From contig CAWINB010000004.1 in the NCBI GenBank assembly GCA_963837465.1, positions 724,393-788,392 on the forward strand: a stretch of 64,000 nucleotides of DNA. The letters run 5' to 3'. The DNA comes from Candidatus Doudnabacteria bacterium (GTDB lineage: Bacteria; Patescibacteriota; Doudnabacteria; UBA920). The number at the start of each line of letters is the position of its first letter. Position 1 is the first letter of the stretch. The notes under the pieces are model-generated. The model was not told the DNA's origin. It did no database searches and saw only the letters and a program-made list of their open reading frames with translations. This document shows, piece after piece, positions 5,907 through 34,873 of this stretch. A program made the translations under genes and the position numbers.

Positions 5907-6071
5907 TTAATAGAAGCTGAGGGTGCGGCGCTGAACGCAAAGGCTGTATGTTGGCTCTGTGGTTGCGGCGTTTGTGTCAGCCCCGTTTTCGCAGCTTCCG
6001 CAAACAGCATACCAAAAATCCCCCGACTTTGCTATAATAAAATTGTAAAAAACAAACAAAATCGCGCTATT

Positions 6072-6944: not shown

Positions 6945-7002
6945 TCCTTAATCCTTGACCGGTTGAGGATGGAAATGTTAAAGATAAAGGATTAAGGGTA
7001 AA

Positions 7003-8103: not shown

Positions 8104-8140
8104 AGGACAATGCTATAATTTAGATGTTCGAATTTACGAA

Positions 8141-8215
8141 TGGAGACGAATCAGCGAGTGTTTATCAATTCGCGGATTCGTGACGATTCGTATATTCGTT
8201 TCAATTCGTAGATTA
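8141..8215. repeat. intergenic repeat family D (core cgattcgtatattcgtttcaattc), copy 1
   Basis: The 24-bp core is identical to 47709-47732. The surrounding acgaat/attcg-rich sequence is also shared. Confidence 0.6.
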
Positions 8216-8224
8216 GAATAGATT

Positions 8225-8599
8225 ATGAAAAATTTTGATTTGAAAAAAATCATTAAGTGGCTGGGGTTTATTTTAAAGTGCCCGGTTTGCGGCAACAAAT
8301 ACAACCTGGACAGGACCAGGATTTTGGAAACCCAGCAGCACGAAGCTTTTAACCAGGCCCGCATTTTAATCCACTCCGACTGCCACAAATGCAAAAGCTC
8401 GGTTATGTTCAACGTGGAGATTTCCGGTCCCGAAGTCTTTAGCGTGGGCGTAATTACAGACCTCACCTCCTCCGACAGCGCCAAGTTCAACAAGCTCCAA
8501 CCCATTGCCGCCAACGAAATTATAGGCATCCATCAGGCCTTAAAGGAATTTAAAGGGGATTTTGTCTCCGGATTTACCCACGTCCCGTCAAAAAATTAG
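8225..8599 (+). CDS. hypothetical zinc-ribbon protein
   Basis: Contains CPVCGN...CHKCKS, two Cys pairs. No other similarity was recognised. Confidence 0.5.
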   Translation: MKNFDLKKIIKWLGFILKCPVCGNKYNLDRTRILETQQHEAFNQARILIHSDCHKCKSSVMFNVEISGPEVFSVGVITDLTSSDSAKFNKLQPIAANEIIGIHQALKEFKGDFVSGFTHVPSKN

Positions 8600-8640
8600 C
8601 TAATTTTTTGACCCAAAGATGTGAGTCCAATAACCGTTGC

Positions 8641-8680
8641 CATCCCGGAATTTTCAGGGCTGTGAAAATATCCGGGATCC
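8641..8680. repeat. 40-bp near-palindromic intergenic element, family C (catcccggaattttcagggctgtgaaaatatccgggatcc)
   Basis: A reverse-complement copy lies at 20768-20809 with only a few differences. Confidence 0.65.
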
Positions 8681-8766
8681 AGAACCAGGCTTATTTACTG
8701 GACCCCGGATCTCGGACGCGCTTGTCCGGGGTGGACACTATAGAGGTTATCGGATTCACATCCAAA

Positions 8767-15769: not shown

Positions 15770-15845
15770 GCCGTTGTAGCTCAGTTGGTAGAGCAACTCC
15801 ATGGTAAGGAGTAGGTCATCGGTTCAATTCCGATCAACGGCTCCA
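15770..15845 (+). tRNA. tRNA-Thr (anticodon GGT)
   Basis: Cloverleaf as read: GCCGTTG/CAACGGC acceptor stem, anticodon loop ATGGTAA, T-loop TTCAATT, and an encoded CCA. Confidence 0.85.
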
Positions 15846-17330
15846 GTAACAAACATTTTCATTTTTTTCAAATTTTTTTAGAGATGCGCGAAGCGCATCG
15901 CTCGGTGGAATGGGGCGAAACTCAATTCTGCCATTATGCAGCAAGGGGTTCGAGCCGGAAATTTTCAATGCAATGGATTTTTTGGGGTGCAGTTCGGGCG
16001 AAAGCGTTATTTCGCCCAGTTTTTGTGCGTCTTTTATCCATTCCCGCATCGGTTCGAGCCAAGAAACAGACCCCCTGCGGAGATCGGTGATTTTCTCCTC
16101 CAGCGTCTTCTTATCCGAGAGCAGGCTTGCCTTCTCTCGAAGATATGACTCCCGGTCAATATCTTGGTCTAACAGGGCGGTAAGAAGGCGTTGGAGTTTT
16201 GCCTCAATAGCCAAAACTCGGCCTTTCATCTCTTGGCAGGCATTTGTGGATAACTGGCTATCCTGCTTAGCGTCCTGGTCCGCCATTTTTAAAAGTTCAG
16301 CTGCACCTTCCGGGGGCAGGACAAATTCTTTGAGAGTTTCGTTAAACAATCTGGCCAATGCTGCATCCCGGATGTATGACTGGGAACATTCAGTATTCTT
16401 TTTGGTACAGCGGTAATAGATATAATGATGAACTTTGCCGGAGACTTGCCGCTTGAGTTTGTTCTCGGCGGTAATGCTCCGACCGCACTCGCCGCACTTA
16501 AACAGCCCGCATAAGGGCTGCGACTCGTTCTTAGGCTTTTTATGAGGCCTACCACGGTCTTTAAGGACCGTTTGGACACGGTCAAACAACTTTTTGGTAA
16601 TTATGGCCTCGTGGTTACCTTGGTACAACTCACCGGCATACCAAAAATGACCGTAGTAAAAAGGGTTTGAGAGGATAACCGCCGACCGATCTCTGGGTAT
16701 GGTTTTTCCACCGGTTGTAAAAATTCCATGTTCAGCAAAAAAATTTGATATATCCTCCAAGCGGCTATCGCCTTGGGCGTAAAGTTCAAAAGCGGCCTTT
16801 ACGACTTTTGCTCGCTTGCGGTCAACGGTAACTTTTTTTATTCTGATGTCATTTAAATAGCCCAATGGGGCCAAGCATGGGTAGTCACCACGCCGGACTT
16901 TCTCGTAAAGTCCGCGTTTGGTGTTGGCGCTTAAGTCTAAAATAAACTGATTGGCCATACCGAGTTCAACCGCCATGACAAGAACATTGTCGGTAGGGTA
17001 ATAGCTTCGGTCGTGGGTTTGGACATGTTGAATCCTTCCCTTTTGGAGCATCCAGCTAATCTGGCCACCGTCAATCGGGTTACGGGCAAGGCGATCCAAC
17101 TTCCAGCAAATAATGCCCTGGGCTTCGCCCTGCTCAATCCGGGCTAGCATATCCGCAAACACCGGACGGCCGGGCTTCTGTGCGGATTGCTTTTCAACGA
17201 ACTCTTGGGCAATATGGAGGCCATCCTGGTTTGCTAATGCTCGCAATACAGCAAGCTGGTCATCAATAGACCGAACTTGCTTGTCTTCCACGTCAGTTGA
17301 TTTACGGGCGTAGAGAAAATAGTTTGACAT
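15834..17330 (-). CDS. large serine recombinase (resolvase catalytic domain + recombinase domain + zinc ribbon + coiled coil)
   Basis: YARKSTD...S..DQ catalytic region, a CxxC...CxxC zinc ribbon, and 498 aa in total. The last 4 codons overlap the tRNA-Thr 3' end. Confidence 0.85.
   Translation of the reverse strand: MSNYFLYARKSTDVEDKQVRSIDDQLAVLRALANQDGLHIAQEFVEKQSAQKPGRPVFADMLARIEQGEAQGIICWKLDRLARNPIDGGQISWMLQKGRIQHVQTHDRSYYPTDNVLVMAVELGMANQFILDLSANTKRGLYEKVRRGDYPCLAPLGYLNDIRIKKVTVDRKRAKVVKAAFELYAQGDSRLEDISNFFAEHGIFTTGGKTIPRDRSAVILSNPFYYGHFWYAGELYQGNHEAIITKKLFDRVQTVLKDRGRPHKKPKNESQPLCGLFKCGECGRSITAENKLKRQVSGKVHHYIYYRCTKKNTECSQSYIRDAALARLFNETLKEFVLPPEGAAELLKMADQDAKQDSQLSTNACQEMKGRVLAIEAKLQRLLTALLDQDIDRESYLREKASLLSDKKTLEEKITDLRRGSVSWLEPMREWIKDAQKLGEITLSPELHPKKSIALKISGSNPLLHNGRIEFRPIPPSDALRASLKKFEKNENVCYWSR
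15841..15987. repeat. IR-L: 147-bp segment (tRNA 3' end ctcca + recombinase 3' tail). Its inverted copy is at 19374-19520.
   Basis: Direct comparison of the reverse complement of 19374-19520 with 15841-15987 gives about 6 mismatches over 147 bp. Confidence 0.85.
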
Positions 17331-17637: not shown

Positions 17638-18741
17638 ATGGTGGAAGCGCCTGCGAACAAACAAATATGGTCTAACTCAAATCTATCAGAGGTTTTGCCT
17701 GGTATTGTTTTGCCTTTGGTTTCCAGCACTGTCATTAAAGTTGTGACAGAAGGCTTTGGGACTATCTTTCCCCTCAAAGCACAAGAGGAGATTTTAAAAG
17801 ACTTTAAAGGGAGAATTTATTTTAACGCCACCTTGGTAGAAGATATATTAAAAAAATTATTGGATTTGCATAAAGTCAGCCTTGAACAGATTTTGGGTGG
17901 TGACCAATCGGAATTTGGATTCGGGCAATCCCTAAAGTTTCCAAATAAGATACGCCTCGGAGCTTTTGTTATTAAACAGCTTTTACTTTCTTTTTTCGCC
18001 CAAATATATATTAAAGTTAGGTTTATTTCTTTTCGTAAGCACATTGATAATTATCTGCAAAACATAAAACGGGCTAATACGACCGATGAATTAAACCGAC
18101 AGTTTAGGCATATATCTAACTTTATTAGCAGTTTAGTAAACCCTGCTTTTCAAGCATTATTTTATCCTATTGCATTGCATCTTTTATTTTTAGAACTTTG
18201 TAAAAAATGGCTCGGGGCAGGATTTAACGAGCAGGCGCAAAATTTGCTGGCGGACGGTAAAAGCGACATTGAATTAGTGCACGCAATGGGTATGCTATGG
18301 AACATAAAGGAAGGGATAAGCAAAGACCCAAAATTCAAGCAGGAGTTTTTGGTTTCTTCCAATGCCAATGAGGCTATAAGCGTTCTCCGAAAGAACCAAG
18401 GGGTATATAAAAATTACTGTGATTTTTTGAATAAATTTGGCCAGCGTTGCATTAAGGAAATGGACTTTTCTTTGCCCCGCTGGAATGAAGACCCAACTTT
18501 TATAATTACGCTTATAAAAAAATATATTGAAACTCCCGACGGACAAAGCCCCTTAAAAAATAAAATTTTATTGGAGCAAAAAAATCTGATAGCAGTCAAC
18601 CAAGCTCGTCAGAATTTGTCCTGGTGGAAATATCATCTCTTAATGTTTGTTTTAAAGAAGTCAACTAAAGGATTGAATTTGAGAGAAAGGTGCAAGTTGG
18701 AATCTGGCCACATATTCCAAGTGCTTAGGTCTTTTTTTTAA
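17638..18741 (+). CDS. PEP-utilising-enzyme-family protein fragment (central region; no N-terminal ATP-grasp domain)
   Basis: Weak similarity to the middle part of PEP synthase/rifampicin-phosphotransferase-type enzymes. It continues in the next ORF after an 11-bp gap. Confidence 0.35.
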   Translation: MVEAPANKQIWSNSNLSEVLPGIVLPLVSSTVIKVVTEGFGTIFPLKAQEEILKDFKGRIYFNATLVEDILKKLLDLHKVSLEQILGGDQSEFGFGQSLKFPNKIRLGAFVIKQLLLSFFAQIYIKVRFISFRKHIDNYLQNIKRANTTDELNRQFRHISNFISSLVNPAFQALFYPIALHLLFLELCKKWLGAGFNEQAQNLLADGKSDIELVHAMGMLWNIKEGISKDPKFKQEFLVSSNANEAISVLRKNQGVYKNYCDFLNKFGQRCIKEMDFSLPRWNEDPTFIITLIKKYIETPDGQSPLKNKILLEQKNLIAVNQARQNLSWWKYHLLMFVLKKSTKGLNLRERCKLESGHIFQVLRSFF

Positions 18742-18752
18742 AGCTGGGCGAA

Positions 18753-19319
18753 TTGTGGGATAAAGAAAATTTAATTATAGAACCATCTGACATTTTTTAT
18801 TTTACTGCCTCGGAGCTAAATGGTTTTTTACAAACAAATTCTTTGGGTAATAAAAACCTATTCAATATCGTGGCCGAACGTAAAGCCGAATACCAGCACT
18901 ATGCCAAAATTAGTATGCCCGACAGAATTTTTGGAAATGAATATGACGAGTTTGCAAGTATTAAGGATGTTGCTCAAAAAGACCAGAGCTTGCCAATACA
19001 GAAGGAGCTCAAGGGGGTCGGAATTAGCGGCGGAGTTGTTGTAGGAATTGCACGGGTTCTTATGTCAGAAAATCAAATCTCGGAGATTAAGCCTGGAGAA
19101 ATTTTGGTCACAGACCATACTGACCCTGGTTGGACTCCAGTCTTTGGGGTGATTAAAGGGCTGGTTACCAATGTTGGTGGTCGCTTGTCCCACGCTTCCA
19201 TAGTAGCGAGAGAATACGGACTGCCGGCTGTTATAAGCGTTCCGAATGCCACAAAGATTATTTCAACAGGGCAACATATTTCACTTGATGCTAATAATGG
19301 AACGGTTAAAATTTTATAG
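18753..19319 (+). CDS. PEP-utilising enzyme mobile (phosphohistidine) domain protein
   Basis: VTDHTDPGWTPVFGVIKGLVTNVGGRLSHASIVAREYGLPAVIS is the canonical swivelling His-domain motif. Confidence 0.65.
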   Translation: MWDKENLIIEPSDIFYFTASELNGFLQTNSLGNKNLFNIVAERKAEYQHYAKISMPDRIFGNEYDEFASIKDVAQKDQSLPIQKELKGVGISGGVVVGIARVLMSENQISEIKPGEILVTDHTDPGWTPVFGVIKGLVTNVGGRLSHASIVAREYGLPAVISVPNATKIISTGQHISLDANNGTVKIL

Positions 19320-19373
19320 AATTTTACACAGTAACAATATTTAATTATTTTCTCTGCGTTTGCGCCCTGCGTC

Positions 19374-19520
19374 TCCCCAAAAAATCCATTGCATTGAAAA
19401 TTTCCGGCTCGAACCCCTTGCTAAAAAATGGCAGGATTGAGTTTGACCCCATTCCACCGAGCGATGCGCTTCGCGCATCTCTAAAAAAATTTGAAAAAAA
19501 TGAAAATGTTTGTTACTGGA
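19374..19520. repeat. IR-R: inverted copy of the tRNA-end/recombinase-tail segment
   Basis: See IR-L. The plus strand here encodes ...PKKSIALKISGSNPLLKNGRIEFDPIPPSDALRASLKKFEKNENVCYW. Confidence 0.85.
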
Positions 19521-19545
19521 GAGAGCTGTATGACAAAGTCCGCAC

Positions 19546-19800
19546 CTATTTTATCAAAAACAGGTTCAATCCAAAGATTTTTTGTGCAGCCGATTTTTTG
19601 GGGTGCAGCTCTGCGCTTTGCGTGATTGCGCCCAGTTTTTCTGCGTCTTTTATGAAGTTTTTGACCGGTTCAATCCAAGTTCCCTGGCTCCGCTCCAAAC
19701 GGGCGACTTGCTCGGTCAAAGTCTTCTTTTCCAAGGTCAACTTGTTCTTCTCCTGCCGGTACTGTTCTGGCTCAATATCTTCGGCCAGATAGGGTAACAT
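19546..19800 (-). pseudogene. diverged 3' fragment of a second large serine recombinase gene, in the same orientation as rec1
   Basis: LTLEKKTLTEQVARLERSQGTWIEPVKNFIKDAEKLGAITQSAELHPKKS aligns with rec1 residues about 395-450. It ends prematurely. Confidence 0.6.
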
Positions 19801-19909
19801 TTTATGGGGGTCAACCGAAGCAGGGGTAGTAACAAATTAGGCTGGTCAATTCGTAAATTTTGTAATTGTTCAAAAAAGGTGGTAAAATAAAGGTAAATTT
19901 TAACAAAAT

Positions 19910-20197
19910 ATGGCATTATCCTGGAATGAGATTAAAACCAGAGCGGTAGAGTTTTCCAAAGAGTGGGAAAATGAAACCAGTGAAGACGCCGAGGCCAAAA
20001 GTTTTTGGGACGGCTTTTTTAATGTCTTTGGCATGACCCGCAAACGTCTGGCCAGCTTTGAATTTGAAGTCAAAAAGCGCGGCGGCAACAGCGGCTTTAT
20101 AGATCTATTTTGGCCAGGCACTTTGATTGTTGAACATAAGTCCCGAGGCAAGAACTTAGAAAAGGCTTACGCTCGATTCCCAGCAGCATTTACCTGA
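19910..20197 (+). pseudogene. N-terminal fragment (95 aa) of an MmeI/PglX-type N6-adenine methyltransferase-restriction protein
   Basis: SWNEIKTRAVEFSKEWENETSEDAEAKSFWDGFFNVFG...IDLFWPGTLIVEHKSRGK is the conserved N-terminal domain of MmeI-like/BREX PglX proteins. The ORF stops after 95 aa. Confidence 0.6.
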
Positions 20198-20466
20198 AGA
20201 AAGCTTTGCCAGTGATTATTTATTAGGGCAATTGGCAGGCGTATCTGGAACTTTAAGCTCTGTAACGGCCTCAGGTTATGCAGAAGTAAAATATAGCAAA
20301 TCGGACTGGAGTCCTCCGCAAAATTTTATCTAAATATAGCCTATGACATATTAAAAACCCGCCGGGTTCGCGTGGTCTGTAAAGACTAGAGGCGCAGCGG
20401 GTGTTGATAGTTGAATTATACACTATTTTAACAAAAAGCAACACTGTGTGGATAAGTTAACATAAA

Positions 20467-20634
20467 ATGCTAGAAAATAAGGAAAAATACAATAAACCCC
20501 CATTATCTATTAAGGAACAGATAGAGCTTTTAAAGAGCCGCGGTTGGTTCAATACCTCGCGGCTTGCCGCGATATTGCAAAAAAACCCGGGCATTAATAC
20601 CCCGCTGCTTGCGGCGGGGAACCTTTATTTTTAA
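20467..20634 (+). pseudogene. N-terminal fragment (55 aa) of an Abi_2 (AbiD/AbiF-like) abortive-infection protein
   Basis: MLENKEKYNKPPLSIKEQIELLKSRGWF matches the Abi_2 N-terminus. Confidence 0.45.
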
Positions 20635-20755
20635 AAAGTTAGGCGAGCTTTCGGGGCGGAGTAGAAAATTAGAGGGGATTTATAGGCGGAAGCTGGAGCT
20701 TTTGGAGGAGCTGAAGAAATCGGTTTTGCAGAAGGCTTTTAGGGGAGAGCTGTAA
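20564..20755 (+). pseudogene. C-terminal remnant of a type I R-M specificity subunit (HsdS)
   Basis: Only the last approximately 22 aa (LELLEELKKSVLQKAFRGEL) are recognisable as the conserved HsdS C-terminal helix. Confidence 0.45.
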
Positions 20756-20767
20756 GTCATTAGTACT

Positions 20768-20809
20768 GGATCCCGGATATTTTTAACAGCCCTTAAAAAT
20801 TCCGGGATG
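20768..20809. repeat. family C palindromic element, inverted copy
   Basis: ggatcccggatatttttaacagcccttaaaaattccgggatg matches the reverse complement of 8641-8680. Confidence 0.65.
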
Positions 20810-20900
20810 ACAGCACTGGCCCAGGCTTTGGACAGGTTATTGCCAATGTGTCCAAAATTTAAGGTTTTTTGGACAAATGGGCCTTAATTTAAAGGGTTCT

Positions 20901-20940
20901 TTGACAAGATGTATACAAACTAGTATACTTTGTATACATC
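20901..20940 (+). promoter_or_regulatory. Fic promoter (ttgaca - 17 bp - tatact) embedded in a 33-bp palindrome gatgtatacaaa-ctagtatac-tttgtatacatc
   Basis: Seen directly. The arms are perfect 12-mers. This is the classic autoregulated promoter/operator arrangement. Confidence 0.6.
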
Positions 20941-20962
20941 TTTAAAAAGATAGATACAAAGT

Positions 20963-22108
20963 ATGAAGAAGCAAGAAATTGGTGTTTATATAAAACAGAC
21001 CGAAGGCTTTAAGGCTTTTGTCCCTTATCCTTTTCCACCAAACGGCGGCTTTGACTTTGGCCATGAGATATTAAAGAAAAATGACCAGGCAAGCAGGTTA
21101 CTGGGAAAACTGGATGGCATTACCAAGTTGTTGCCGGATTCAGACTTCTTTTTGCTTATGTATTTAAGAAAGGATGCCGCTTCTTCCAGCCAGATTGAAG
21201 GAACCAGGGCTACCATGATAAATGCCATAGAAGCGGAAGCTAAAGTAAGCGGCAACGTGCCCGCGGACGTAGACGACATTTTGCATTATATAAAAGCCCT
21301 AAACTACGGCATGAAACGGGTGGTTGCGGATGAGTTTCCTGTGTCACTTCGCTTTTTAAGAGAGCTGCATAAAAAACTCATGGACCAAGCCAGGGCAACT
21401 CATTTTTCCGACCCCGGAGAATTCCGCAAAACACAAAATTGGATTGGCGGGAATAAACCAGGCAACGCCAGTTTTGTCCCTCCGCCCGTTTCAGAAATGC
21501 ATCGCGCGTTAAATGACTTGGAAAAATTTATGCATTCGCGGGACGCCACCCTGACGCTAATTAAAGCCGCTCTGCTTCACGCGCAATTTGAAACTATCCA
21601 CCCGTTTTTGGACGGTAATGGCCGCACCGGAAGGATGCTGATAACTTTTTACTTGTGGAAAGAAGGTTTTCTGGAAAAACCCGTTTTGTTCTTGTCTTCC
21701 TACTTCAAAAAATTTCAACAGGTTTATTATCAAAAATTGTTTGGCTACCACCATGGTGAAGTTGAGTTTTGGGTTGATTTTTTTCTGGACGGAGTTATTG
21801 AAATTGCCAACGAAGCCATAGACATTGTAGGAAAAATTACCACTCTCAGAGAACAAGACATGCAAAAAATACAAAAGCTGGGAACTCGCGCCTCGGAAAG
21901 CGCTGCCTCTATTTTACCTAAATTGTACGGACAGCCAATTGTTAATAACGCGTTAGTACAAAAATGGACCGGCTTTACCCGGGCAGGCGCTCAAAGAGTG
22001 ATAGATAGATTTATTAAAATGCGGATTCTTTTGCCTAAAGACCAGGACATAAAATACGGGCAATCTTACGCTTATACAAAATATATTGCCATTTTTGGGA
22101 ATAAGTAG
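20963..22108 (+). CDS. Fic/DOC-family adenylyltransferase (Fic_N + Fic domains)
   Basis: The Fic motif HPFLDGNGRTGRML is present. Confidence 0.85.
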   Translation: MKKQEIGVYIKQTEGFKAFVPYPFPPNGGFDFGHEILKKNDQASRLLGKLDGITKLLPDSDFFLLMYLRKDAASSSQIEGTRATMINAIEAEAKVSGNVPADVDDILHYIKALNYGMKRVVADEFPVSLRFLRELHKKLMDQARATHFSDPGEFRKTQNWIGGNKPGNASFVPPPVSEMHRALNDLEKFMHSRDATLTLIKAALLHAQFETIHPFLDGNGRTGRMLITFYLWKEGFLEKPVLFLSSYFKKFQQVYYQKLFGYHHGEVEFWVDFFLDGVIEIANEAIDIVGKITTLREQDMQKIQKLGTRASESAASILPKLYGQPIVNNALVQKWTGFTRAGAQRVIDRFIKMRILLPKDQDIKYGQSYAYTKYIAIFGNK

Positions 22109-22115
22109 AATTACC

Positions 22116-22442
22116 ATGAACGAAGCCGAAACAAGAGCTGAATATGTTGACCCAAAACTAAAGGCGGGCGGCTGGGGCGAGACCGAAGGATCAAAAGTCC
22201 TGCGGGAATTTCGTATTACCGAAGGGCGTATCCAAGTCGGCGGGGAGCGCGCCAAACCGGAAATTGCCGATTATATTTTGGTTTATAAAAACCAAAAGCT
22301 CGCGGTTATCGAAGCAAAAAAAGAAGACCTTTTGCCAACCGAAGGCGTAGCCCAGGCCATAGCCAGAAATTGTTCCCAGCAGGAGAAGTTTTTAACCCGA
22401 TACTCGCCCCTGTACCTGGCAACACATTTATTGAATTTGTAA
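22116..22442 (+). pseudogene. N-terminal fragment (about 108 aa) of a type I/III restriction endonuclease R subunit
   Basis: MNEAETRAEYVDPKLKAGGWGE...ADYILVYKNQKLAVIEAKK is the conserved HsdR/Res N-terminal nuclease-domain start. The ORF terminates early. Confidence 0.55.
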
Positions 22443-22620
22443 CGAACTACTTGTTCCATAATCTGTGAAAAAACATACTTTCCTTGGTTCATAAAGATAA
22501 TCAAAGGTTAATTCCCTTAATTATCCCATAGCCCAAATTCAAATCGAAAAATATGTTTTTGTCAGATTACGGCTCAATTAAAATCATTTTAAACTTTTAT
22601 TAAAAATTAACCGGACACGA

Positions 22621-22875
22621 GTGATGCGACGGTATCAGTTTACACCAGAGCAAATAAGTCAATATTTTGCTTCAATGGATAGTATCTACACTCAAACCGG
22701 TTTGCCAAAGGTAACCGATTTTACGGAGGATTTTATTTGGGCAAAAAGCGTATGGTCAACAACCAGAATGCAGAGGTATCCAAAATTGCAACAGTGGCGG
22801 TATGATAAATTCAAAAGAATGACTGGTGAATATTTGAACGATAAGTCATTAATAAAAATGGCCTTAGAATTTTAA
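22621..22875 (+). CDS. hypothetical protein
   Basis: 84-aa ORF with no recognisable family. Confidence 0.3.
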   Translation: MMRRYQFTPEQISQYFASMDSIYTQTGLPKVTDFTEDFIWAKSVWSTTRMQRYPKLQQWRYDKFKRMTGEYLNDKSLIKMALEF

Positions 22876-22880
22876 TACTT

Positions 22881-22975
22881 TTTAATTTCTTTTTTGCCTC
22901 CGCGCCCCGCGCCCCCAAAAAATCCTTCGCACTGAAAATTTCCGCGTTGAACCCTTTGCTAAAAAGGGCTGTTGA
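22881..22975. repeat. third, degenerate copy of the recombinase-tail/att-like segment, in the same orientation as IR-R
   Basis: ccccaaaaaatccttcgcactgaaaatttccgcgttgaaccctttgctaaaaa aligns with 19371-19430. The upstream GC-rich run is also shared. Confidence 0.6.
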
Positions 22976-23039
22976 GTTATCCACTTGACGATTTATTTGA
23001 ATGTACGTTATTATGTACGTATCATTAATAATAAAATAT

Positions 23040-23237
23040 ATGCCAAAAATACAAAAGTTTCGGGTGGATATTTGGTTCAATGAGCTTCCCAATAAAATTA
23101 AACTGGGGAGCGTGCGTATTTACGCGGACACCGAGGATATAGCTTTGGGGCTTGCGCGCGCCCATACCGACTACCAGGTCAGCGGGGTGGATGAAACCAT
23201 CTGGCAGGTTAAGGAGCGACAGGTCGTTTACGCTTGA
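23040..23237 (+). CDS. small hypothetical protein, paralogue of 38192..38413
   Basis: Shared pattern F+VxIWF..P.KI.LG...EE.A..LARAHT.Y..SG.D..W...ER. Confidence 0.5.
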   Translation: MPKIQKFRVDIWFNELPNKIKLGSVRIYADTEDIALGLARAHTDYQVSGVDETIWQVKERQVVYA

Positions 23238-23359
23238 CAAGGAACTTGTTTGATTACAGATCCCTCGGCAAGCTCGGGACGGCATGAATGCCGTTTTTGT
23301 CATTTTTTCCGCGCGAGGCGTATCTGCCTACGGCATAATAATTTTCTGTCATTTCTATC

Positions 23360-23722
23360 ATGAATTCCAAAACCACACTATCAATTTCCGAAGCCAGAAA
23401 AAGGATTTTTGAAATCGCGGAAGAAGTCCAAAGACCTGGCGTTTATTATACTTTAACCGATAAGGGCAGGCCCAAAGCGGTAATGGTATCTTTTGACGAA
23501 TACGAATCTTTAATGGAGACTATTGAAGTAACGGGGGAAATGCCTGAACTGGATAAAGATATTAAAGAAGCGCGCGAGGCTTACAAGAGCGGCGAATATA
23601 AAACCTGGACTACTTTGGAAGGTTTGTTAGCCAAGCAAGGTTTTGTTTTGGCGGAAAAAGCAAAAAAACAATATGGCGTTTCTTCTAAGGCTCAATCCAA
23701 ACGCAGAAAAACAATTAAATAA
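23360..23722 (+). CDS. Phd/YefM-family antitoxin
   Basis: N-terminal LSISEARKRIFEIAEEV...KAVMVSFDEYESLMETIE. Confidence 0.75.
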   Translation: MNSKTTLSISEARKRIFEIAEEVQRPGVYYTLTDKGRPKAVMVSFDEYESLMETIEVTGEMPELDKDIKEAREAYKSGEYKTWTTLEGLLAKQGFVLAEKAKKQYGVSSKAQSKRRKTIK

Positions 23723-23927
23723 AATTCCAAATCCTTACAAAGACCGGATTACTGTTACTTTATCCGTAATTGCTGGCAACCCTTGGTTGGGGAAGAAACT
23801 AAAAGGCAAATTTCAAGGTTCTTATTCAGTTAAGGTTTGGCCTTACCGGATTATTTATGATATTTACAAAAATGATTTACTGGTTTTGATAATCAAAATA
23901 AAGCATCGCGGCAATGCTTATGATTAA
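23673..23927 (+). CDS. RelE/ParE-family toxin
   Basis: YRIIYDIYKNDLLVLIIKIKHR C-terminal signature. It overlaps the antitoxin 3' end. Confidence 0.7.
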   Translation: MAFLLRLNPNAEKQLNKIPNPYKDRITVTLSVIAGNPWLGKKLKGKFQGSYSVKVWPYRIIYDIYKNDLLVLIIKIKHRGNAYD

Positions 23928-24216: not shown

Positions 24217-25814
24217 ATGCTCAATGAGACCAGGGTTAATTTAAAGCATCTGCTGGAAGACATTCGCGACGCCTATACTTCTCCCCTGGAAGAGGTTATT
24301 TTAACCGAATTGGCTGCCAATGCATTGGACAGCAAGGCTAAGGTTTTACATTTCACGGTGGACGCGGAGCGTAAGTTTTTGCGCTGCGTGGACGACGGCA
24401 ACGGCATGAAGCGGGAGCAACTGAAGAATTACCATAATATCGCGGCTTCCACCAAAACGCGCGGACAGGGCATTGGTTTTGCCGGCGTAGGCGCCAAACT
24501 TTCTTTATTGATTGCCGATAAGGTTGTAACGGAAAGCAAGGGAGGACACGGGACCAAGTCCGCCACGGAATGGCAATTGACCCAAACCTACCGCGCGCCA
24601 TGGAAATTTGTTCCTTATTCCGGGACCGTGCAAACCCCCCGCGGCACTTCCGTTACCATCCATTTTACGGACAGCCGGTCGCGCCTGCTCAGTGAAGATT
24701 TCGTGGAGCAAGCTATTATCCGCCATTTTTATCCGCTGCTTTCCGAACAGTTTTACAATCAGTTTTTAAAATATTTTTATAAAGTTCCCGTCAGTTTTGT
24801 TATTAATGGTCGGCATATTGTTTTGCCGGAAGCCGGGCAGGAAGCGCTGCAACATTGGTTTAAGGTATCGTTGGGAAAAACACGGGCTGCCGCCGGAGTC
24901 GGCTTTTTGGTGCGCGCGGGGATGGGCCAGGCTGGCTGCGGAAGATGCTGGGCAAAAGCGCTGCTGTTTCTTCGCTTTCATCAGGCCTGTGGATTTCCAC
25001 TTTCGGCAAGGTTATTAAAGGCGGTTGGGAGTGGCTGGGTCTTATGCCCAAAAATGCCGCGCAAATTTCCGGCCTGGTGGAAATTCCGGGTATGTCGGAA
25101 ATTTTGACTACCAACAAAAATGATTTTTTAAGCGATGCCAACAGCCTGAAAAAATACTACAAATTCCGCAAGGCCGCGCAGGAGGCGGTGCTGCCGATAC
25201 TGCAGGACATGGGAGAGACGGCTTCTCCCGCCGATATCGCCCCGGAAAAAATTTTGCGTCCTCTTAGCCAGTCTATTACCGGGGCGTTAACGAGCTTGGT
25301 CGGCGATTTTCCCGAGCTGGAAACGTTAATCGGCCAACACCGGACGGAAGCTTTGGGCAGTCCGAGAAAAGAAAAAGATGATAAAAAAATTACGGTTGCC
25401 GAACCCCCGGCGGATTACGGCGGAGATGGGGCCGGGCAGGATTCCGGGAACAGGCCCGATGCCGATCCGGAAGGGGAAAAGTCCGCTCCAACCCCGGCCG
25501 GCATTGCCGATGACTCCAAATCCAAAACAGTCAGGACAAAAACCGCCGGCTTAAAATTGGTGCTGGGGGAAATTGACAACGAAAACGGCGCAATTCTGGG
25601 CCGCGTTATGGAGGATACCCTGACGGTAAACACCGCGCATCCTGCCTGGAAAAAAGCAAAACAAAAAGGCTTGGAAGAATACCATATAGTAATTACGGTA
25701 GCGTCGGTCCTTTCCCAGTTTTTGGAAAGCGAAAAGAACCCGCGGGACTTCTTAAACCGCCTGCTCATAGCGTGGGCAGCTGAAAGTGAAAAAATGGCGG
25801 GAAAATTATTTTAA
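24217..25814 (+). pseudogene. GHKL (HATPase_c, MORC/MutL-like) ATPase, about 530 aa, split by a frameshift near 24900-24945
   Basis: Bergerat-fold motifs ELAANALD (N-box), DDGNGM and GQGIGFAGVGAKLS are present. The reading frame changes from the 24217 frame to the 24945 frame. The tail of frame 1 is nonsense-like. Confidence 0.6.
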
Positions 25815-26522: not shown

Positions 26523-28064
26523 ATGGCTACAAAAACTAAAAATGGTACATCGGCAAACATAGGTTTTGAAGAAAAGCTTTGGGCCACAGCGGATAAAATG
26601 CGCAACAATATGGACCCGGCCGAATATAAGCACGTTATTCTGGGGCTTATATTTTTAAAGTATATTTCCGACTCTTTTGAAGAACTCTATCAAAAGTTAA
26701 AAACTGATTCTGAATCCGATCCGGAAGATAAAGACGAGTATTTGGCGGAAAACGTTTTTTGGGTGCCGCAGGAGGCACGCTGGAACTATTTACAGGATAA
26801 CGCCAAAAAGCCCGGTATCGGCACTTTGGTAGATGGGGCTATGGTCGCCATTGAAAAAGAAAACCCCACGCTTCGGGGCGTGCTGCCAAAAATTTACGCG
26901 CGCCCGGACCTGGACAAAACCAGGCTCGGTGAAATAATAGATTTAATGAGTTCCCTTGGCCTGGGGGATAACGAAAGTAAGGCTAAGGATTTGTTGGGCC
27001 GGGTATATGAATATTTCATCGGCCGCTTTGCCAGCGCCGAGGGTAAGGGTGGCGGAGAATTTTTTACTCCGCGGTCTGTTGTAAAATTACTGGTGGGAAT
27101 GATTGAGCCTTATAAAGGCAGAATTTATGATCCCTGCTGCGGCAGTGGTGGTATGTTTGTGCAGAGCGAGAAATTTGTGGAAGCGAACGACGGCCGCAAA
27201 GGGGATATTGCGGTGTACGGACAGGAGTTAAATCCTACTACCTGGCGCTTGTGTAAAATGAACCTGGCTATTCGCGGTATAGAAGGAAATATCGGGTCGC
27301 AGCATGCCGATTCGTTCCATAATGACCAGCACAAAGACTTAAAAGCGGATTTTATCTTGGCCAATCCGCCATTTAATATCAGCGATTGGGGAGGGGAGCG
27401 CTTGCGCGATGATGTCCGCTGGCAATACGGCGTGCCGCCAACCGGTAACGCCAACTATGCCTGGATTCAGCATATGGTTTACCATCTTGCTCCAACCGGT
27501 ATAGCCGGTTTTGTTATGGCTAATGGCAGTCTTTCTTCCAATACTTCCGGCGAAGGTGAAATTAGAAAAAATTTAATAGAAAAAGGTTTGGTCGATTGTA
27601 TTGTAGCCATGCCCAGCCAACTTTTTTATACCACACAAATTCCGGCCTGTTTGTGGTTTGTGTCCCGCGACCGTTACGATCACAAATTCCGCAACCGCCA
27701 CGACGAAATACTGTTTATAGACGCCCGTAAAATGGGCGCTATGGTTAGCCGCAAAAACCGCGAATTTGCCGCGGAAGATTTAAACAAAATCACCGGTACC
27801 TACCACAACTGGCGCAACGTCAACGGTAAATACCAGGACGTAAAAGGCTTCTGCAAAGCCGCCAAAATTACGGAAGTGGAAAAAGCCGGCTTCGTCCTAA
27901 CCCCCGGCCGCTATGTTGGCTCGGAAATTGTGGAAGAAGACGATGAAGTCTTTGGAGAAAAAATGAAGCGATTGACCACGGAACTATCAAGCCAATTTAA
28001 GGAATCTAAAGAGCTGGAAGAAAGAATAAAGAAAAATTTGGATTCAATAGGGTTTAAAATATAA
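26523..28064 (+). CDS. hsdM: type I restriction-modification system methyltransferase subunit
   Basis: HsdM N-terminal domain, the motif [13 protein letters not shown], and the FxGxG AdoMet region. Confidence 0.9.
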
Positions 28065-28071
28065 ATAGCAT

Positions 28072-28713
28072 ATGTTGATATTTATTGACGAATCCGGGGA
28101 TCCTGGGTTAAAACTTGGTGAAGGTTCAAGTAAATATTTTACTGTGGCTTTAGTAGTGTTTGAGGAAAATGATGAAGCGCTTGCTTGCGACCAAAAGATT
28201 GAATTGTTCAAGCGAGAATTGGGATGGAAGCCAAAAAGCGAATTTCATTTTAAAAATAACTCAGACAGAGTCCGCAAAGGCTTTTTGCAGGCAGTCGCGC
28301 CGTACAATTTTTTTTATTATGGAATTGTTTTAAACAAAGACCCTAAAAAGTTATGGGGCGAAGGATTTAAGGACAAGCAATCCTTTTACAAATACGCTTG
28401 CGGCCTGGTTTTTGAAAATGCAAAACCCAAACTTACAGAAGCAACAGTTATTATTGATGCCAGCGGCAGTTTGGATTTTAAAAATCAGCTGACTAAATAC
28501 CTGCGCCGCAAATTTAATGAGCAAGGAAATTCAGGTTCTAAAATAATCAAAAATGTAAAGATGCAACGCTCGGAAAGTAATAATTTATTGCAGCTGGCGG
28601 ATTATATTGCAGGCGTAATTAACCGCTCAATCAATAACACTAAAAAATACTCCGGCGATTACAGAAAGCTTATAGCTCACAGGGAGATAAGGGTACAAAT
28701 TTGGCCAAATTAA
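28072..28713 (+). CDS. DUF3800-family protein embedded between hsdM and hsdS
   Basis: N-terminal IFIDESGD and C-terminal LLQLADYIAG signatures. It starts 8 bp after the hsdM stop. Confidence 0.6.
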   Translation: MLIFIDESGDPGLKLGEGSSKYFTVALVVFEENDEALACDQKIELFKRELGWKPKSEFHFKNNSDRVRKGFLQAVAPYNFFYYGIVLNKDPKKLWGEGFKDKQSFYKYACGLVFENAKPKLTEATVIIDASGSLDFKNQLTKYLRRKFNEQGNSGSKIIKNVKMQRSESNNLLQLADYIAGVINRSINNTKKYSGDYRKLIAHREIRVQIWPN

Positions 28714-28886
28714 AACTTCCGACCCTATCCCTTGCGGGAACGCGGCGATAAACGCCACAGTTCAGATCGGAAGCGATTCCATTGTTATTATATCTGACTA
28801 TTAACCTTTGTCAAGAACTGTTAAGACTTGTTAAGCAATTATTCCCTTAATAACAAAAAAAGCCTATAATTAAGGCACTATAATTA

Positions 28887-28914
28887 CCGCAAAATGCCTA
28901 AAGGCATTTTGCGG
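28887..28914. promoter_or_regulatory. perfect 12-bp-stem hairpin ccgcaaaatgcc-taaa-ggcattttgcgg in the hsdM-DUF3800 / downstream-operon spacer
   Basis: Seen directly. It is preceded by tataat-like boxes (cctataattaagg, cactataatta). Confidence 0.45.
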
Positions 28915-28927
28915 TCAAAAACCAGTT

Positions 28928-29257
28928 TTGTCAAACAAGTTTATGAAAAAAGGCTCAAAAAAAGAACTGGAAATTAGCGCGAAAGATCTAAAAACCATTT
29001 TTGGCAAAGACTATAAAAAATTCCAGACAAAAATACTCACCAACTGTTTTTGTATGAACTGCGCAGATAAAAAAGCAAACGCAACAATAATAAACTATAA
29101 AATAATCCTCAACCCCCTAAACGACCTAACCCTCCTCGGCTCCTGCAAAACCTGCGGCTCCAGAATTAACCGATATGTGGAGACTGGGGAAGTGAAGGGG
29201 TATGCGGGAAGGATTAAAAAAATAAGAAAAACATATGACGACTCTGGAAAAAATTAA
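28928..29257 (+). CDS. hypothetical zinc-ribbon protein
   Basis: Contains CFCMNC...CKTCG. It is translationally coupled to downstream ORFs. Confidence 0.4.
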   Translation: MSNKFMKKGSKKELEISAKDLKTIFGKDYKKFQTKILTNCFCMNCADKKANATIINYKIILNPLNDLTLLGSCKTCGSRINRYVETGEVKGYAGRIKKIRKTYDDSGKN

Positions 29258-29552
29258 TCTATGGCAGGCCATATTTACCGGTGTGGCAGTTTTGGTTGCC
29301 GGTGTTGCAACTTATTTGGCTTATAAAATTGGCAAAAAACAGAATAAAATAAATGAGATTGCTTTAAGTATTACCAATTTTGTAGAAATATTTTTGATGC
29401 CGCAACAGGTAATTCTAGAAAATGAACTTAAAGAAAGAATTATCAAATGGAGCATTCTTAATAAAAAATGTCAGCTCTTATCCAATATACTTAAACGAAT
29501 ACAGTCTCAACGGGCTGAAAAATCACGTGGGGAGCAGTGCGATACCAAATGA
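29235..29552 (+). CDS. hypothetical single-TM protein
   Basis: TM helix AIFTGVAVLVAGVATYLAY. Its 3' part overlaps the next ORF in another frame (possible frameshift or overlap). Confidence 0.3.
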   Translation: MTTLEKINLWQAIFTGVAVLVAGVATYLAYKIGKKQNKINEIALSITNFVEIFLMPQQVILENELKERIIKWSILNKKCQLLSNILKRIQSQRAEKSRGEQCDTK

Positions 29553-29724
29553 TTTAGACAGTTGGTATACGGTCCCAATCCCCGAAGATGTACAAACTAA
29601 AGGCGAATTTTCTTTGATCGTTGAATTTGAAGACTACTTGGGTAAAAAATACAAGGCGGAAGGTTTTGGAATTTTTAGAGGCACAGGCTGGGAAATAAAA
29701 TCCAAAAAGAGAATTGAAATATGA
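29422..29724 (+). CDS. hypothetical protein
   Basis: 100 aa, ending 3 bp into hsdS. Confidence 0.3.
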   Translation: MNLKKELSNGAFLIKNVSSYPIYLNEYSLNGLKNHVGSSAIPNDLDSWYTVPIPEDVQTKGEFSLIVEFEDYLGKKYKAEGFGIFRGTGWEIKSKKRIEI

Positions 29725-30980
29725 AACAAATCACTACAAAATTCAAACAAACCGAAATCGGCCTTGTTCCGGAAGAATGGGATGTTTTAAAGGTGTCTGA
29801 TGTTGCAGTGGTGGATGAAGAAGTTATTTCAAAAAATGATAATTTTAGCGAAATTCAGTACTTGGACGTTGCGGCAACAGATCAAGGACAGGTACTAGAA
29901 GTTCAAAAACTAAATCTAGCAGATGCTCCAAGTCGTGCCAAAAGAAAAGTCAAAGACAATGACATTTTAATATCCACAGTAAGGCCAAATTTAAAACATT
30001 ATACTTTTATTAAAAAAGCGCCAAATAATCTAGTGGCTTCTACTGGTTATGCGGTAATAAGTTCAAAAAAAGCAGATCCAAGATATTTATATTACGCTTT
30101 AACAACAGAAGAATTTACAGAATTTCTTGGAAGAATTGCGGATAGCCATACTTCGACTTATCCAGCAATTAATCCAGATGTGATCGAAAACGCTTTAATA
30201 GCAGTACCATCAATAACCGAACAAAAACAAATCGCGGAGATTCTTTGTTCTTTGGACGACAAAATAGAACTGAACCGCAGAATGAATAAAACTTTAGAAG
30301 CAATCGGACAGGCAATTTTTAAACGGTGGTTTGTGGATTTTGAATTCCCAAACGAACAAAGCAAACCTTACAAATCGTCGGGTGGGGAAATGGTAGAAAG
30401 CGAATTGGGTGAAATTCCGAAAAATTGGAATGTTGGAAAGCTAAGTGATATTGCTAATATAATTATGGGCCAATCGCCAAAATCTAAATATTATAATAGC
30501 AATAAAGAAGGTTTGCCGTTTTATCAAGGCGCAACGGATTTTGGAGATCGTTTTCCTACTGAGCGTGTCTATTGCATAAAAAATAGCAGGGTTGCAGAAG
30601 AAAATGATATATTGATGAGTGTTCGCGCTCCTGTAGGGAGAATTAATGTTGCAAACGGCAAACTATCCTTAGGAAGAGGAGTTTGCGCAATGCGCAGCAA
30701 AATTGGAAGTCAGTCACATTTATTGTATTTATTAAAAGTGTTTTTCCATACAGAAGATATTATAGGCGATGGCTCAGTTTTTGCTTCTGTAGCGCGCGAT
30801 GAGCTTTCAAAAATACCGGTTATAGTACCCCCACAAGAGATTGTTAATTTATTTGAAAGAATTACCGGGCAGACGGATAGACAATATGAACTACTAGCAA
30901 AAGAGAATACTAACTTATCCCAAATCCGAGACTCGCTTTTGCCTCGGTTGATGAGTGGAAAAATTAGAGTAATTATATGA
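29721..30980 (+). CDS. hsdS: type I restriction-modification system specificity subunit (two target-recognition domains)
   Basis: Duplicated TRD architecture with conserved spacer helices and a C-terminal ...LPRLMSGKIRV. Confidence 0.85.
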   Translation: MKQITTKFKQTEIGLVPEEWDVLKVSDVAVVDEEVISKNDNFSEIQYLDVAATDQGQVLEVQKLNLADAPSRAKRKVKDNDILISTVRPNLKHYTFIKKAPNNLVASTGYAVISSKKADPRYLYYALTTEEFTEFLGRIADSHTSTYPAINPDVIENALIAVPSITEQKQIAEILCSLDDKIELNRRMNKTLEAIGQAIFKRWFVDFEFPNEQSKPYKSSGGEMVESELGEIPKNWNVGKLSDIANIIMGQSPKSKYYNSNKEGLPFYQGATDFGDRFPTERVYCIKNSRVAEENDILMSVRAPVGRINVANGKLSLGRGVCAMRSKIGSQSHLLYLLKVFFHTEDIIGDGSVFASVARDELSKIPVIVPPQEIVNLFERITGQTDRQYELLAKENTNLSQIRDSLLPRLMSGKIRVII

Positions 30981-31732
30981 TTAGACTTGTTGTGAATTTA
31001 ACATTTTTAGAAAAAATTAAATCTGGGGATTTTCTGACTTTTTTTGCGGTTGTCCTCGCATATCTTGCTTATTCAAAATCAATAAATGATAAATATGAAT
31101 CTTGGCGGTCATTGCTTTTATCTCTCAAGGCTGATTTAGAAAGCCAATCTGCATGGCTGTCTTCTGAATATAAAGAAGAAACTTATAAAGATAAGACTGC
31201 TTTTTCTCCTAGAAAAATTATTTTCCCCCTCTCGTTTAAATCGTTAGAAGAAATAATAAGTCGTGGCGCTAGCGATTTTAATTTTTCGGAAAAATTTATA
31301 AAAAATATTTCAATTTTTGATGAAAGAATAGAAACATTTAACAAGCTCCTTGAACAGCAGAGGCTGAATGTAACTGCAAATCCTGTATTAACACATAATT
31401 TGGTAGAAATTTTGGATTCAAATGGGGCTTGTGATTGCGCCACAACTTATGATAATTTTTTTCAATCTATTGAGAATATGAAGGTTTCTCAGCCGGATTG
31501 TTATGCTTTAGCCAAAAGAATACACTCAATTAATAGGATTATACATATCAACATCATATCAAACGAGGACGACGAAAGCGGCCTGCACTATCTATACAAA
31601 TATTTGTTAAATGAAGTACAAAATAAGCTTTCTAATCTAGAAAAATCTAAGCCGTGGCATTTAAGGTATAAATGGCCGCTATTGATTCTTGGATGCGTTT
31701 TGTTTATTCTTATTGAATCGTTACTAAAATAA
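30977..31732 (+). CDS. hypothetical membrane protein (TM helices at both ends) embedded between hsdS and hsdR
   Basis: 251 aa. It overlaps the hsdS stop by 4 bp and ends 4 bp before hsdR. Confidence 0.45.
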   Translation: MIRLVVNLTFLEKIKSGDFLTFFAVVLAYLAYSKSINDKYESWRSLLLSLKADLESQSAWLSSEYKEETYKDKTAFSPRKIIFPLSFKSLEEIISRGASDFNFSEKFIKNISIFDERIETFNKLLEQQRLNVTANPVLTHNLVEILDSNGACDCATTYDNFFQSIENMKVSQPDCYALAKRIHSINRIIHINIISNEDDESGLHYLYKYLLNEVQNKLSNLEKSKPWHLRYKWPLLILGCVLFILIESLLK

Positions 31733-31735
31733 TAT

Positions 31736-34700: not shown

Positions 34701-34873
34701 TGATGGTCAAAAAACTTTTACGCAAATACCAATATCCTCCAGACAAGCAGGAAAGCGCTGCGAAGTTGGTTTTGGAACAAGCGGAAATTTTATGCAAAGA
34801 TTGGGACGGAGAAGAATTGCCAAAATACAGCTATCATTTTGTGAAAGAAGAAAGAGCTCTTTATAACTCATAA
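31736..34873 (+). CDS. hsdR: type I restriction enzyme R subunit
   Basis: SF2 helicase motifs ([23 protein letters not shown]), an N-terminal nuclease domain, and 1045 aa in total. Confidence 0.9.

Follow-up and report, generated by a model that had tools for sequence, protein, structure and literature searches.

Positions 19546-22985 of the DNA analysed here, a stretch of 64,000 nucleotides (nt) from Candidatus Doudnabacteria that we call the window, are best read as the decayed cargo of a genomic island at a tRNA-Thr gene, containing the remnants of three defence systems and one intact gene, fic. We put the probability of this reading at roughly 0.8. An initial annotation had described four truncated defence genes of different families around an unrelated, autoregulated Fic toxin. 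The fragments are present as described, but the tail of hsdS, the fic gene and the head of hsdR appear to be pieces of one type IB restriction-modification (R-M) operon, which would make three dead systems and not four plus a toxin. The region is a case of ordinary mobile defence island decay, not a new kind of system. The pieces of the cargo, in order along the window, are as follows.

19910..20170, + strand: opening 87 codons of a Type IIG restriction-methylase gene of the MmeI family (Pfam MmeI_N, PADLOC REase_MTase_IIG; the open reading frame (ORF) runs to 20197)
20476..20544, + strand: N-terminal leader, about 23 residues, of an Abi_2/AbiD-family gene (PADLOC AbiD and plasmid matches; ORF 20467-20634)
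20627..20755, + strand: last 42 codons of a type I hsdS (PADLOC Specificity_I; degenerate homology possibly from 20588)
20901..20960, + strand: fic promoter and operator (-35 at 20901-20906, -10 at 20924-20929; sites at 20909-20919, 20929-20939 and 20950-20960)
20963..22108, + strand: intact fic gene, SoFic-type class II, 381 residues (Pfam Fic_N and Fic; PADLOC SoFic)
22116..22364, + strand: first 83-93 codons of an EcoAI-type (type IB) hsdR (NCBIfam EcoAI/FtnUII; ORF to 22442)
22342..22486, - strand: N-terminal part, about 53 residues, of an IS4-family transposase gene (Pfam DUF4372, 2.7e-16; tblastn to IS4 / ISGme2)

In the history that we propose, the first system would have been an MmeI-family Type IIG enzyme, now cut past codon 87, the second an Abi_2-family gene, cut past about codon 26, and the third a type IB (EcoAI/EcoEI-like) R-M operon with a SoFic-type fic gene between hsdS and hsdR. 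The third system would have lost hsdM and most of hsdS and hsdR, keeping the end of hsdS, the start of hsdR and, between them, fic together with its promoter and operator.

Both hsd pieces are short but recognisable. A 63-residue ORF at 20564-20755 gave no Pfam match; its residues 21-63 aligned with the very C-terminal end of 18 PADLOC Specificity_I models (E = 2.4e-8 for the best), and the tail is 64% identical to the HsdS C-termini encoded at two related loci, L043 and L014. The surviving part of hsdS is its last 42-55 codons, without a target-recognition domain. On the other side of fic, the ORF at 22086/22116-22442 matched the NCBIfam EcoAI/FtnUII HsdR model at 1.4e-19 over positions 1-85 of 768, was also matched by Pfam HSDR_N, and is 79-80% identical to the hsdR found 3' of fic in L035, L031, L026 and L043. 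It begins 7 nt past the fic stop codon, and this gap (ATTACC) is identical to that of L031. Neither piece has BLASTP similarity to the intact Type I system further along the window (hsdS at 29721, hsdR at 31736), which bears out the initial annotation in separating the hsdR head from the intact hsdR, and tblastn with three HsdM proteins found no hsdM matching a type IB operon anywhere in the window. Judged by sequence, the two pieces are a type IB remnant, not a complete Type I R-M system.

The same comparisons bear on the suggestion that the fragments have a function, as silent cassettes or as partners in phase variation that would recombine with full-length genes, for example in recombinase-driven hsdS shuffling. 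Type I hsdS shufflons are well known, and a recombinase and long inverted repeats are close by; however, the hsdS piece has no target-recognition domain, and besides the lack of similarity just described no repeat ties either hsd piece to a full gene. We consider such a function highly improbable.

That hsdS, fic and hsdR belong together is indicated by related loci. A scan of one genome per species gave 68 loci encoding Fic relatives of 54-82% identity, in Patescibacteria (Candidate Phyla Radiation), Proteobacteria, Omnitrophota, Brocadia, Actinomycetota and other groups. Five of these (L014, from Candidatus Brocadia pituitae, L015, L031, L035 and L043) carry, in order, hsdM, one to three variable genes, hsdS, fic and an hsdR of 770-870 residues; L013 has the same order from hsdM to hsdR, with hsdS split by masked sequence, and in L026 only the end of hsdS is visible before the contig start. 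When the largest ORF of at least 100 residues on each side of fic was taken as its neighbour, the downstream neighbour was a Type I R subunit in 11 of 55 cases, eight of them carrying EcoEI_R_C, a mark of type IB, and the commonest upstream neighbour was HsdS (7 of 52). Families other than HsdR and HsdS account for at most two neighbours, mostly one each, and downstream HsdR alone recurs. An hsdR-like ORF beginning MNE(A/S)ETRAE lies 3-10 nt past the fic stop codon at 17 of 66 loci. Since the order and spacing are the same in the intact operons, the hsdS tail, fic and hsdR head of the window would together represent the middle of a single type IB operon.

The earlier description of four independent systems, each truncated, with an unrelated autoregulated Fic toxin lying between them by chance, fits poorly with these loci. 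The four fragments do derive from different protein families, and neither MmeI nor Abi_2 was found as a companion of fic in any relative. Yet in order, orientation and spacing the hsdS tail, fic and hsdR head match exactly the intact operons of about a dozen genomes from several phyla, including the 7-nt gap shared with L031, and a chance assemblage of this kind is very unlikely.

Twelve of the 17 hsdR-like ORFs are full or split hsdR genes and the other five are stubs, of 8 to about 27 codons, that stand behind an intact fic in different phyla (L003, L025, L032, L041 and L052). By eye, still more eroded traces of hsdR were seen at L011, L023 and L046, and at several loci only the ...AF.GEL end of hsdS is left upstream of fic. 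Retention of fic after loss of the R-M genes appears from these loci to be a recurrent outcome. The stubs also allow for a different history, in which the unit of hsdS tail, operator, fic and hsdR head was acquired as an already truncated mobile segment and did not decay in place; the short hsdS and hsdR ends could then be leftovers, or homology arms for exchange between type IB loci. In keeping with this, the fic cassette and its operator occur at 70-82% identity in many phyla, mostly amid unrelated housekeeping neighbours, and the tiny hsdR stubs stand alone at the five loci named above, with hsdS-like ends upstream at some loci. Stub lengths, however, vary by locus and no common boundary or repeat delimits a unit, while in the window the hsdR stub ends at the IS4 fragment and the hsdS stub at the Abi fragment, an arrangement that resembles local deletion. 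We regard import of a ready-made fragment as a real but unlikely possibility, and prefer decay of a type IB operon, which may have occurred in place.

The junctions give some indication of how such decay might have proceeded. The hsdR stub ends at about 22364 against the opposite-strand fragment of the IS4 transposase gene, and the junction falls within the transposase gene, not at the end of an insertion sequence (IS). Upstream, a terminator-like hairpin (20600-20619) separates the Abi leader, which stops at about 20544, from the hsdS tail, which is evident from 20627 onwards. No IS end or other recognisable element boundary was found at any fragment junction, which suggests that the pieces were joined by illegitimate deletions. 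Pfam searches at E-values up to 10 found nothing credible in stop-to-stop pieces of 20160-20330, 20756-20884, 20683-20883, 22621-22872 and 23040-23234, nor in the recombinase-like pieces described below, and a PHROGs search of the small ORFs found nothing.

The first of the other two remnants, a 95-residue ORF at 19910-20197, matched Pfam MmeI_N at 1e-18 (profile positions 2-78 of 181) and PADLOC REase_MTase_IIG at 7.8e-20 (positions 2-89 of 912). Like the MmeI-family Type IIG enzymes it has an N-terminal PD-ExK domain with D-X9-E-X-K, here D65-X9-E75-X-K77, which we take to be the MmeI-type nuclease motif. Of the two names first given to the piece, MmeI or PglX, the former stands and the latter does not, given the nuclease motif and a best profile of REase_MTase_IIG. 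In a tblastn comparison with the window, the fragment was 65% identical to residues 1-87 of a 915-residue plasmid homologue, codon 87 being the end of its homology to full-length relatives, and residues 88-915 matched nothing significant anywhere in the window. Unlike the full-length enzymes it keeps 87 of about 900 codons, with no helicase-like, methylase or specificity domain downstream. Neither an hsdM tail nor an MmeI C-terminus was found by tblastn in 20171-20466; a resemblance of this stretch to MmeI codons 90-105 is faint, frameshifted and not significant in a Pfam search.

A near-intact relative of the MmeI-family gene, with all the MmeI domains, occurs at 4815-8728 of another contig, L073, just past a tRNA cluster and 176 nt after tRNA-Trp. 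Homology to this gene begins 10 nt 5' of the ATG and stops at 20169, and the first 81 residues of its protein are 84% identical to the window fragment. The L073 genome has the same rpsB-tsf-TPR-tRNA-Thr neighbourhood as the window (TPR, tetratricopeptide repeat), but its rpsB is only 41% identical, as in a distant relative; the 84% identity of the MmeI-family proteins against this background argues that the MmeI gene itself is horizontally mobile. The L073 gene has a single frameshift at about codon 83, in an assembly with 1.75x coverage. The many short MmeI_N-only proteins in databases had raised the possibility of a stand-alone MmeI_N family or a phase-variation hotspot, which was rejected on inspection, L073 being a single low-coverage frameshift and a second such case, L074, a multiply broken pseudogene.

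The Abi_2 assignment is supported, but it is the weakest of the pieces and turns on some 23 residues. The 55-residue ORF at 20467-20634 is Abi-like over residues 4-26 only. Its residues 7-30 aligned with positions 2-25 of the PADLOC AbiD profile at E = 0.03, and tblastn with the ORF against plasmids gave 24 weak matches, of which 20 are annotated 'Abi family protein'. All 20 fall within the first 36 query residues, nearly all within 1-26, and in the two plasmid records inspected the match covers the first codons of the Abi gene. Conversely, two Abi_2 reference proteins matched the window at 20476-20544 (residues 2-24, E ~1e-4) and nowhere else. A database protein, P0129, has KPPLSIKEQIELLKSRG in common with the leader and continues to ...YYRLSGY, the start of Pfam Abi_2. 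The Pfam Abi_2 model sets in at residue 33-40 of intact proteins, and the 55-residue ORF gave no match to the Pfam Abi_2/HEPN domain because the fragment, a leader only, stops ahead of the domain start. We accept it as a probable Abi_2-family leader. The Abi gene beside a plasmid MmeI homologue is Abi_C, which belongs to another family. A separate Abi_2 N-terminal stub of 39 residues (P0128, MPENKEKYNKPPLSIKEQIDLLKSRGLIV...) occurs on 12 contigs, and follows a PemK/MazE pair in five of the six places shown (L108-L113).

The four fragments reported in the initial annotation were thus recovered where it had placed them, with profile matches for MmeI_N, HsdS and HsdR and a weaker one for Abi_2 (E = 0.03). 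They are also true truncations. Full-length proteins (the 915-residue MmeI homologue, two Abi_2, three type IB HsdR, four HsdS and three HsdM) were compared with the whole window by tblastn, and the matches covered only the first 87 residues of MmeI, residues 2-24 of Abi, the first 83 (up to 95) of HsdR and 42-71 residues at the end of HsdS; the remaining credible matches were distant ones to the intact, unrelated Type I system at 26523-34873. No continuation displaced by a frameshift was found for any fragment. An assembly chimera, or sequencing frameshifts that make complete genes appear cut, might be suspected in a metagenome-type contig, the more so as related MmeI genes in public data do have single frameshifts (L073). 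But the missing 90% of each gene is in none of the six frames of the window, and a Logan contig assembled independently from a different run (L072, ERR10755945) is 99.93% identical over 19579-22383 with the same arrangement, which argues that the arrangement is not chimeric. We give an artefact of this kind almost no credence. L072 and the window have only two differences in these 2.8 kb, an extra C at 21176 and a substitution at 21221; the extra C frameshifts fic just 5' of the inhibitory helix and may be a population variant or a read error.

The fic gene itself is intact in the window, as had been claimed. Its product matched PADLOC SoFic almost end to end (E = 2.5e-106, residues 15-378 on positions 5-358 of 361). 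The Fic motif HPFLDGNGRTGR, of the pattern HxFx(D/E)GNGRxxR, lies at residues 213-224, and the inhibitory helix motif (S/T)xxxE(G/N) is present in cis, N-terminal to the Fic core, as S75-S-Q-I-E-G80; both are invariant in an alignment of 62 relatives. A profile built from the relatives aligns with SoFic crystal chains from end to end, the C-terminal domain included (to residue 360), and the phmmer match of the window protein to these PDB chains is a distant one (E ~1e-22). Doc and VbhT models matched only far below their cut-offs. No two-gene Fic/Doc antitoxin was apparent, in that beyond hsdS and hsdR no family recurs among the neighbours of at least 100 residues, smaller ORFs not having been systematically examined. 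By these motifs and matches the protein is assigned as a class II, cis-inhibited enzyme of SoFic type and not as the toxin of a two-gene toxin-antitoxin pair. Near-full-length matches to fic are uninterrupted reading frames in 61 of 63 cases; the two interrupted ones are in a Gracilibacteria and a Peribacteria metagenome-assembled genome, and an alternative genetic code may explain the interruption in at least the Gracilibacteria gene.

Upstream of fic is a conserved operator-like array, palindromic and overlapping the -35 and -10 elements. The promoter, TTGACA-17-TATACT at 20901-20929, matches at 11 of 12 positions and was the best promoter-like site in a scan of 19300-23400; it lies within the palindrome 20898-20950. 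Interleaved with its -35 and -10 are three sites, ATGTATACAAA at 20909-20919, TTTGTATACAT at 20929-20939 and ATAGATACAAA at 20950-20960. In an alignment of the upstream regions of 56 loci four such sites appear, whose cores fall near -73, -52, -31 and -11, with TTGAC and TATACT between them. The spacing of 20-21 bp corresponds to two helical turns, with the sites alternating in orientation on one face of the DNA. Across the 56 loci the mean pairwise identity from -85 to -1 is 0.68. In codons the corresponding values are 0.72 (first position) and 0.43 (third position), and the sequence further upstream gives 0.35; the excess over third positions indicates strong constraint on this non-coding stretch. 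As no gene other than fic was always linked to the array in the neighbour scan, Fic is the most economical candidate for the protein that binds it, and is predicted to recognise its own promoter. Of the suggested autoregulated Fic toxin, the conserved operator is borne out; the protein itself, with its inhibitory motif in cis, is of class II SoFic type.

About 145 nt separate the hsdS stop codon (20753-20755) from the -35. Within this interval, a 45-nt hairpin element (CTGGATCCCGGATATTTT...AAAATTCCGGGATG) at 20768-20812 has a second copy at 8640-8685 on the - strand; both copies are just 3' of a TAA triplet, and the one here fills the position of the first operator site of relatives. Just 5' of the fic promoter, 20827-20875 contains three TTTGGACA/TGTCCAAA motifs in 49 nt, in forward-reverse-forward orientation. 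These are three of the nine TTTGGACA octamers in the 64 kb of the window. The cluster is operator-like in layout, with a core unlike the Fic sites.

What is known of related proteins suggests how the window gene might act. SoFic is toxic and serves as a single-gene anti-phage defence (PMC12249575; Millman et al. preprint). A SoFic dimer uses its C-terminal winged helix to bind specifically within the 100 bp that precede the start codon of its gene, and SoFic AMPylates EF-Tu (bioRxiv 10.64898/2026.07.09.737422). CccR represses its own promoter through palindromes, in the account cited in PMC10628234. With SoFic (Shewanella oneidensis / E. coli) and CccR (Yersinia pseudotuberculosis), the window protein shares an N-terminal dimerisation/inhibitory helix, the Fic motif and a C-terminal winged helix, and its palindromic operator within 100 bp upstream is reminiscent of SoFic promoter binding and CccR autorepression. 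It differs in that its clade has a defined array of up to four TTTGTATACAT sites 20-21 bp apart, that no AS1-like small gene is evident downstream of the window fic, and that a subset of its relatives is embedded in a type IB R-M operon; from SoFic it differs further in falling far below the NCBIfam equivalog cut-off and in the distance of its PDB match. By analogy, the product of fic, the one gene left intact, is most likely a SoFic-like, dimeric class II AMP-transferase that would poison translation through EF-Tu during phage infection, and its C-terminal winged-helix domains would bind the TTTGTATACAT sites over the -35 and -10, repressing its own transcription. The gene is probably live and self-regulated.

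The classic example of a toxic gene embedded in a Type I locus is PrrC in EcoprrI, and prrC also lies between hsdS and hsdR. The window resembles this case in having a toxic gene of abortive-infection type within a Type I R-M locus. The differences are that Fic is an AMP-transferase and PrrC an HEPN RNase, and that the window retains the embedded gene alone, its R-M part being dead. We know of no interaction of Fic with an R-M enzyme. A SoFic-type protein might nevertheless have a double role in these operons, controlling expression of the restriction subunit, in analogy to the C proteins of Type II systems, and serving as a second line of the PrrC kind, to kill a cell in which the R-M enzyme is disabled. 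This proposal is speculative, and we think it unlikely to hold; if it did, the many solo fic genes with hsdS and hsdR stubs, the window's included, would be what remains after loss of the R-M partner, with fic still under selection. Fic/Doc-like and Abi2 genes linked to or embedded in R-M operons have been described (Anantharaman 2013, PMC3710099), and systematic 'guilt by embedding' surveys exist (Payne 2024, bioRxiv 10.1101/2024.01.29.577857). That toxic or abortive genes are embedded in Type I loci, and that winged-helix Fic proteins are autoregulated, is already established. Added here are the explicit four-site operator of this clade, the close linkage of fic to hsdR in operons of type IB, and the repeated survival of fic beside hsd stubs; no paper stating these was found in a literature coverage that was incomplete, so that the absence is no proof of novelty.

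The setting of the cargo is an island that targets a tRNA gene and has fragmented recombinase genes inside it. The features that define it are listed here.

15770..15845, + strand: tRNA-Thr(GGT), the integration site and left edge of the island (ARAGORN)
15834..17330, - strand: large serine recombinase gene, intact, 498 residues (Pfam Resolvase, Recombinase, Zn_ribbon_recom)
15841..15987, no strand assigned: inverted-repeat arm over the 3' end of the recombinase gene (partner 19375-19521; 147 nt, 96% complementary)
19375..19521, no strand assigned: other arm of the inverted repeat; a conserved 40-nt stretch follows (19522-19562)
19546..19800, - strand: remnant of a second recombinase gene, about residues 385-470, without the repeat part (72% nt identity to 15947-16063)
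22874..22985, + strand: fragment of the recombinase-end repeat, oriented as 19375-19521 (85% complementary to 15940-15987; 73% identical to 19336-19427)

At the island start, rpsB, tsf and a TPR gene precede the tRNA-Thr gene, the CCA end of which overlaps both the stop codon of the recombinase gene and the inverted repeat at its outer end. Many metagenomic relatives of the recombinase are convergent against tRNA genes, and against many different ones, which places the enzyme in a family that targets tRNA ends. We propose that it services a mobile island at tRNA-Thr, of which 19546-22985 would be the decayed cargo. The translation of 19546-19800 parallels the recombinase C-terminus. This remnant and the repeat fragment at 22874-22985 bracket all the defence remnants, in an order and orientation that fit the ends of a second decayed copy, and weakly support the view that they are the two ends of one decayed element. 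The defence fragments lie about 4 kb from the junction of the tRNA-Thr and large serine recombinase genes, amid recombinase gene fragments. Turnover beside an integration site, as first proposed, is in agreement with this position; this sequence does not date it as rapid, and the fic piece may have arrived with its stubs.

The repeat-bracketed recombinase is a less ordinary feature of the neighbourhood than the defence remnants, and we know of no described element with its design. The same design is found in L081, L083 and L085. Among relatives from independent metagenomes (L080-L085) the inverted repeats are 144-149 nt long and 94-100% identical, and the second copy lies 90-200 nt upstream of the recombinase start codon. 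At its end each repeat has the final 5-7 nt of the adjoining tRNA gene, and the copy away from the tRNA is then followed by the conserved 40-nt stretch. In two of the relatives, L080 and L082, the recombinase ORF runs through the repeat into the 40-nt stretch, not into the tRNA gene. Either both orientations or both integrated and free forms of the recombinase segment exist. That the 147-nt repeats are the ends of a compact IS was considered and rejected, as relatives have conserved sequence that extends past the inner copy. A search that allowed up to three mismatches found no other copy of the 25 nt at the 3' end of tRNA-Thr, and no partial tRNA repeats mark the borders.

Comparable decay has been described for the tycheposon islands of Prochlorococcus, in which accretion and decay of elements at tRNA sites leaves fragmented integrases (bioRxiv 10.1101/2020.12.28.424599). 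The window resembles them in its site-specific recombinase beside a tRNA gene, in older elements pushed inward, in fragmented integrases and in its defence cargo; it differs in that the recombinase is of the large serine type, in the 147-nt inverted repeats and in having no partial tRNA copies.

Several observations weigh against the overall account of island cargo, type IB remnant and live fic gene. The reading of 19546-19800 and 22874-22985 as the ends of one decayed element has weak support, in that the flanks of the repeat copies at 22874-22985 and 19375 are alike at 33 of 50 positions, with 27 +/- 2.6 in a shuffled null. About 80% of the related fic loci have no R-M remnant, and the fic piece may have been imported already truncated. 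The Abi_2 assignment involves some 23 residues, and no profile search by itself makes it significant. Fic scores 118 bits against the 550-bit cut-off of the NCBIfam SoFic equivalog. The upstream-most of the four operator sites is absent in the window, where regulation may differ with this site lost, and the frameshift of fic in L072 may mean that the gene is decaying in part of the population.

For annotation, the region is a set of pseudogene remnants with one candidate single-gene defence, of SoFic type, and not several systems; automated defence finders that count domains would overcount in the window. A widespread Fic clade gains a precise and testable operator, in which as many as four TTTGTATACAT sites are set among the -35 and -10 elements. 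The operator, and a fic gene that appears to have outlived its type IB operon, should be useful in work on SoFic regulation; they leave current understanding unchanged, and their interest is modest.

Within the repeat pair, 17638-19319 contains adjoining ORFs of 367 and 188 residues, with an XRE-type regulator. The 188-residue ORF has a PEP-utilizers (phosphoenolpyruvate) mobile domain, and the two ORFs together resemble a split, N-terminally truncated PEP-synthase/phosphotransferase-like gene. Past 23 kb follow a Phd/ParE pair (23360-23927), a HATPase_c_3 gene that appears split and, with a DUF3800 gene inside it, the intact Type I system. The split gene, at 24217-25814, encodes a GHKL (HATPase_c_3) ATPase in overlapping ORFs of 296 and 289 residues, and is probably another frameshifted pseudogene of defence type.

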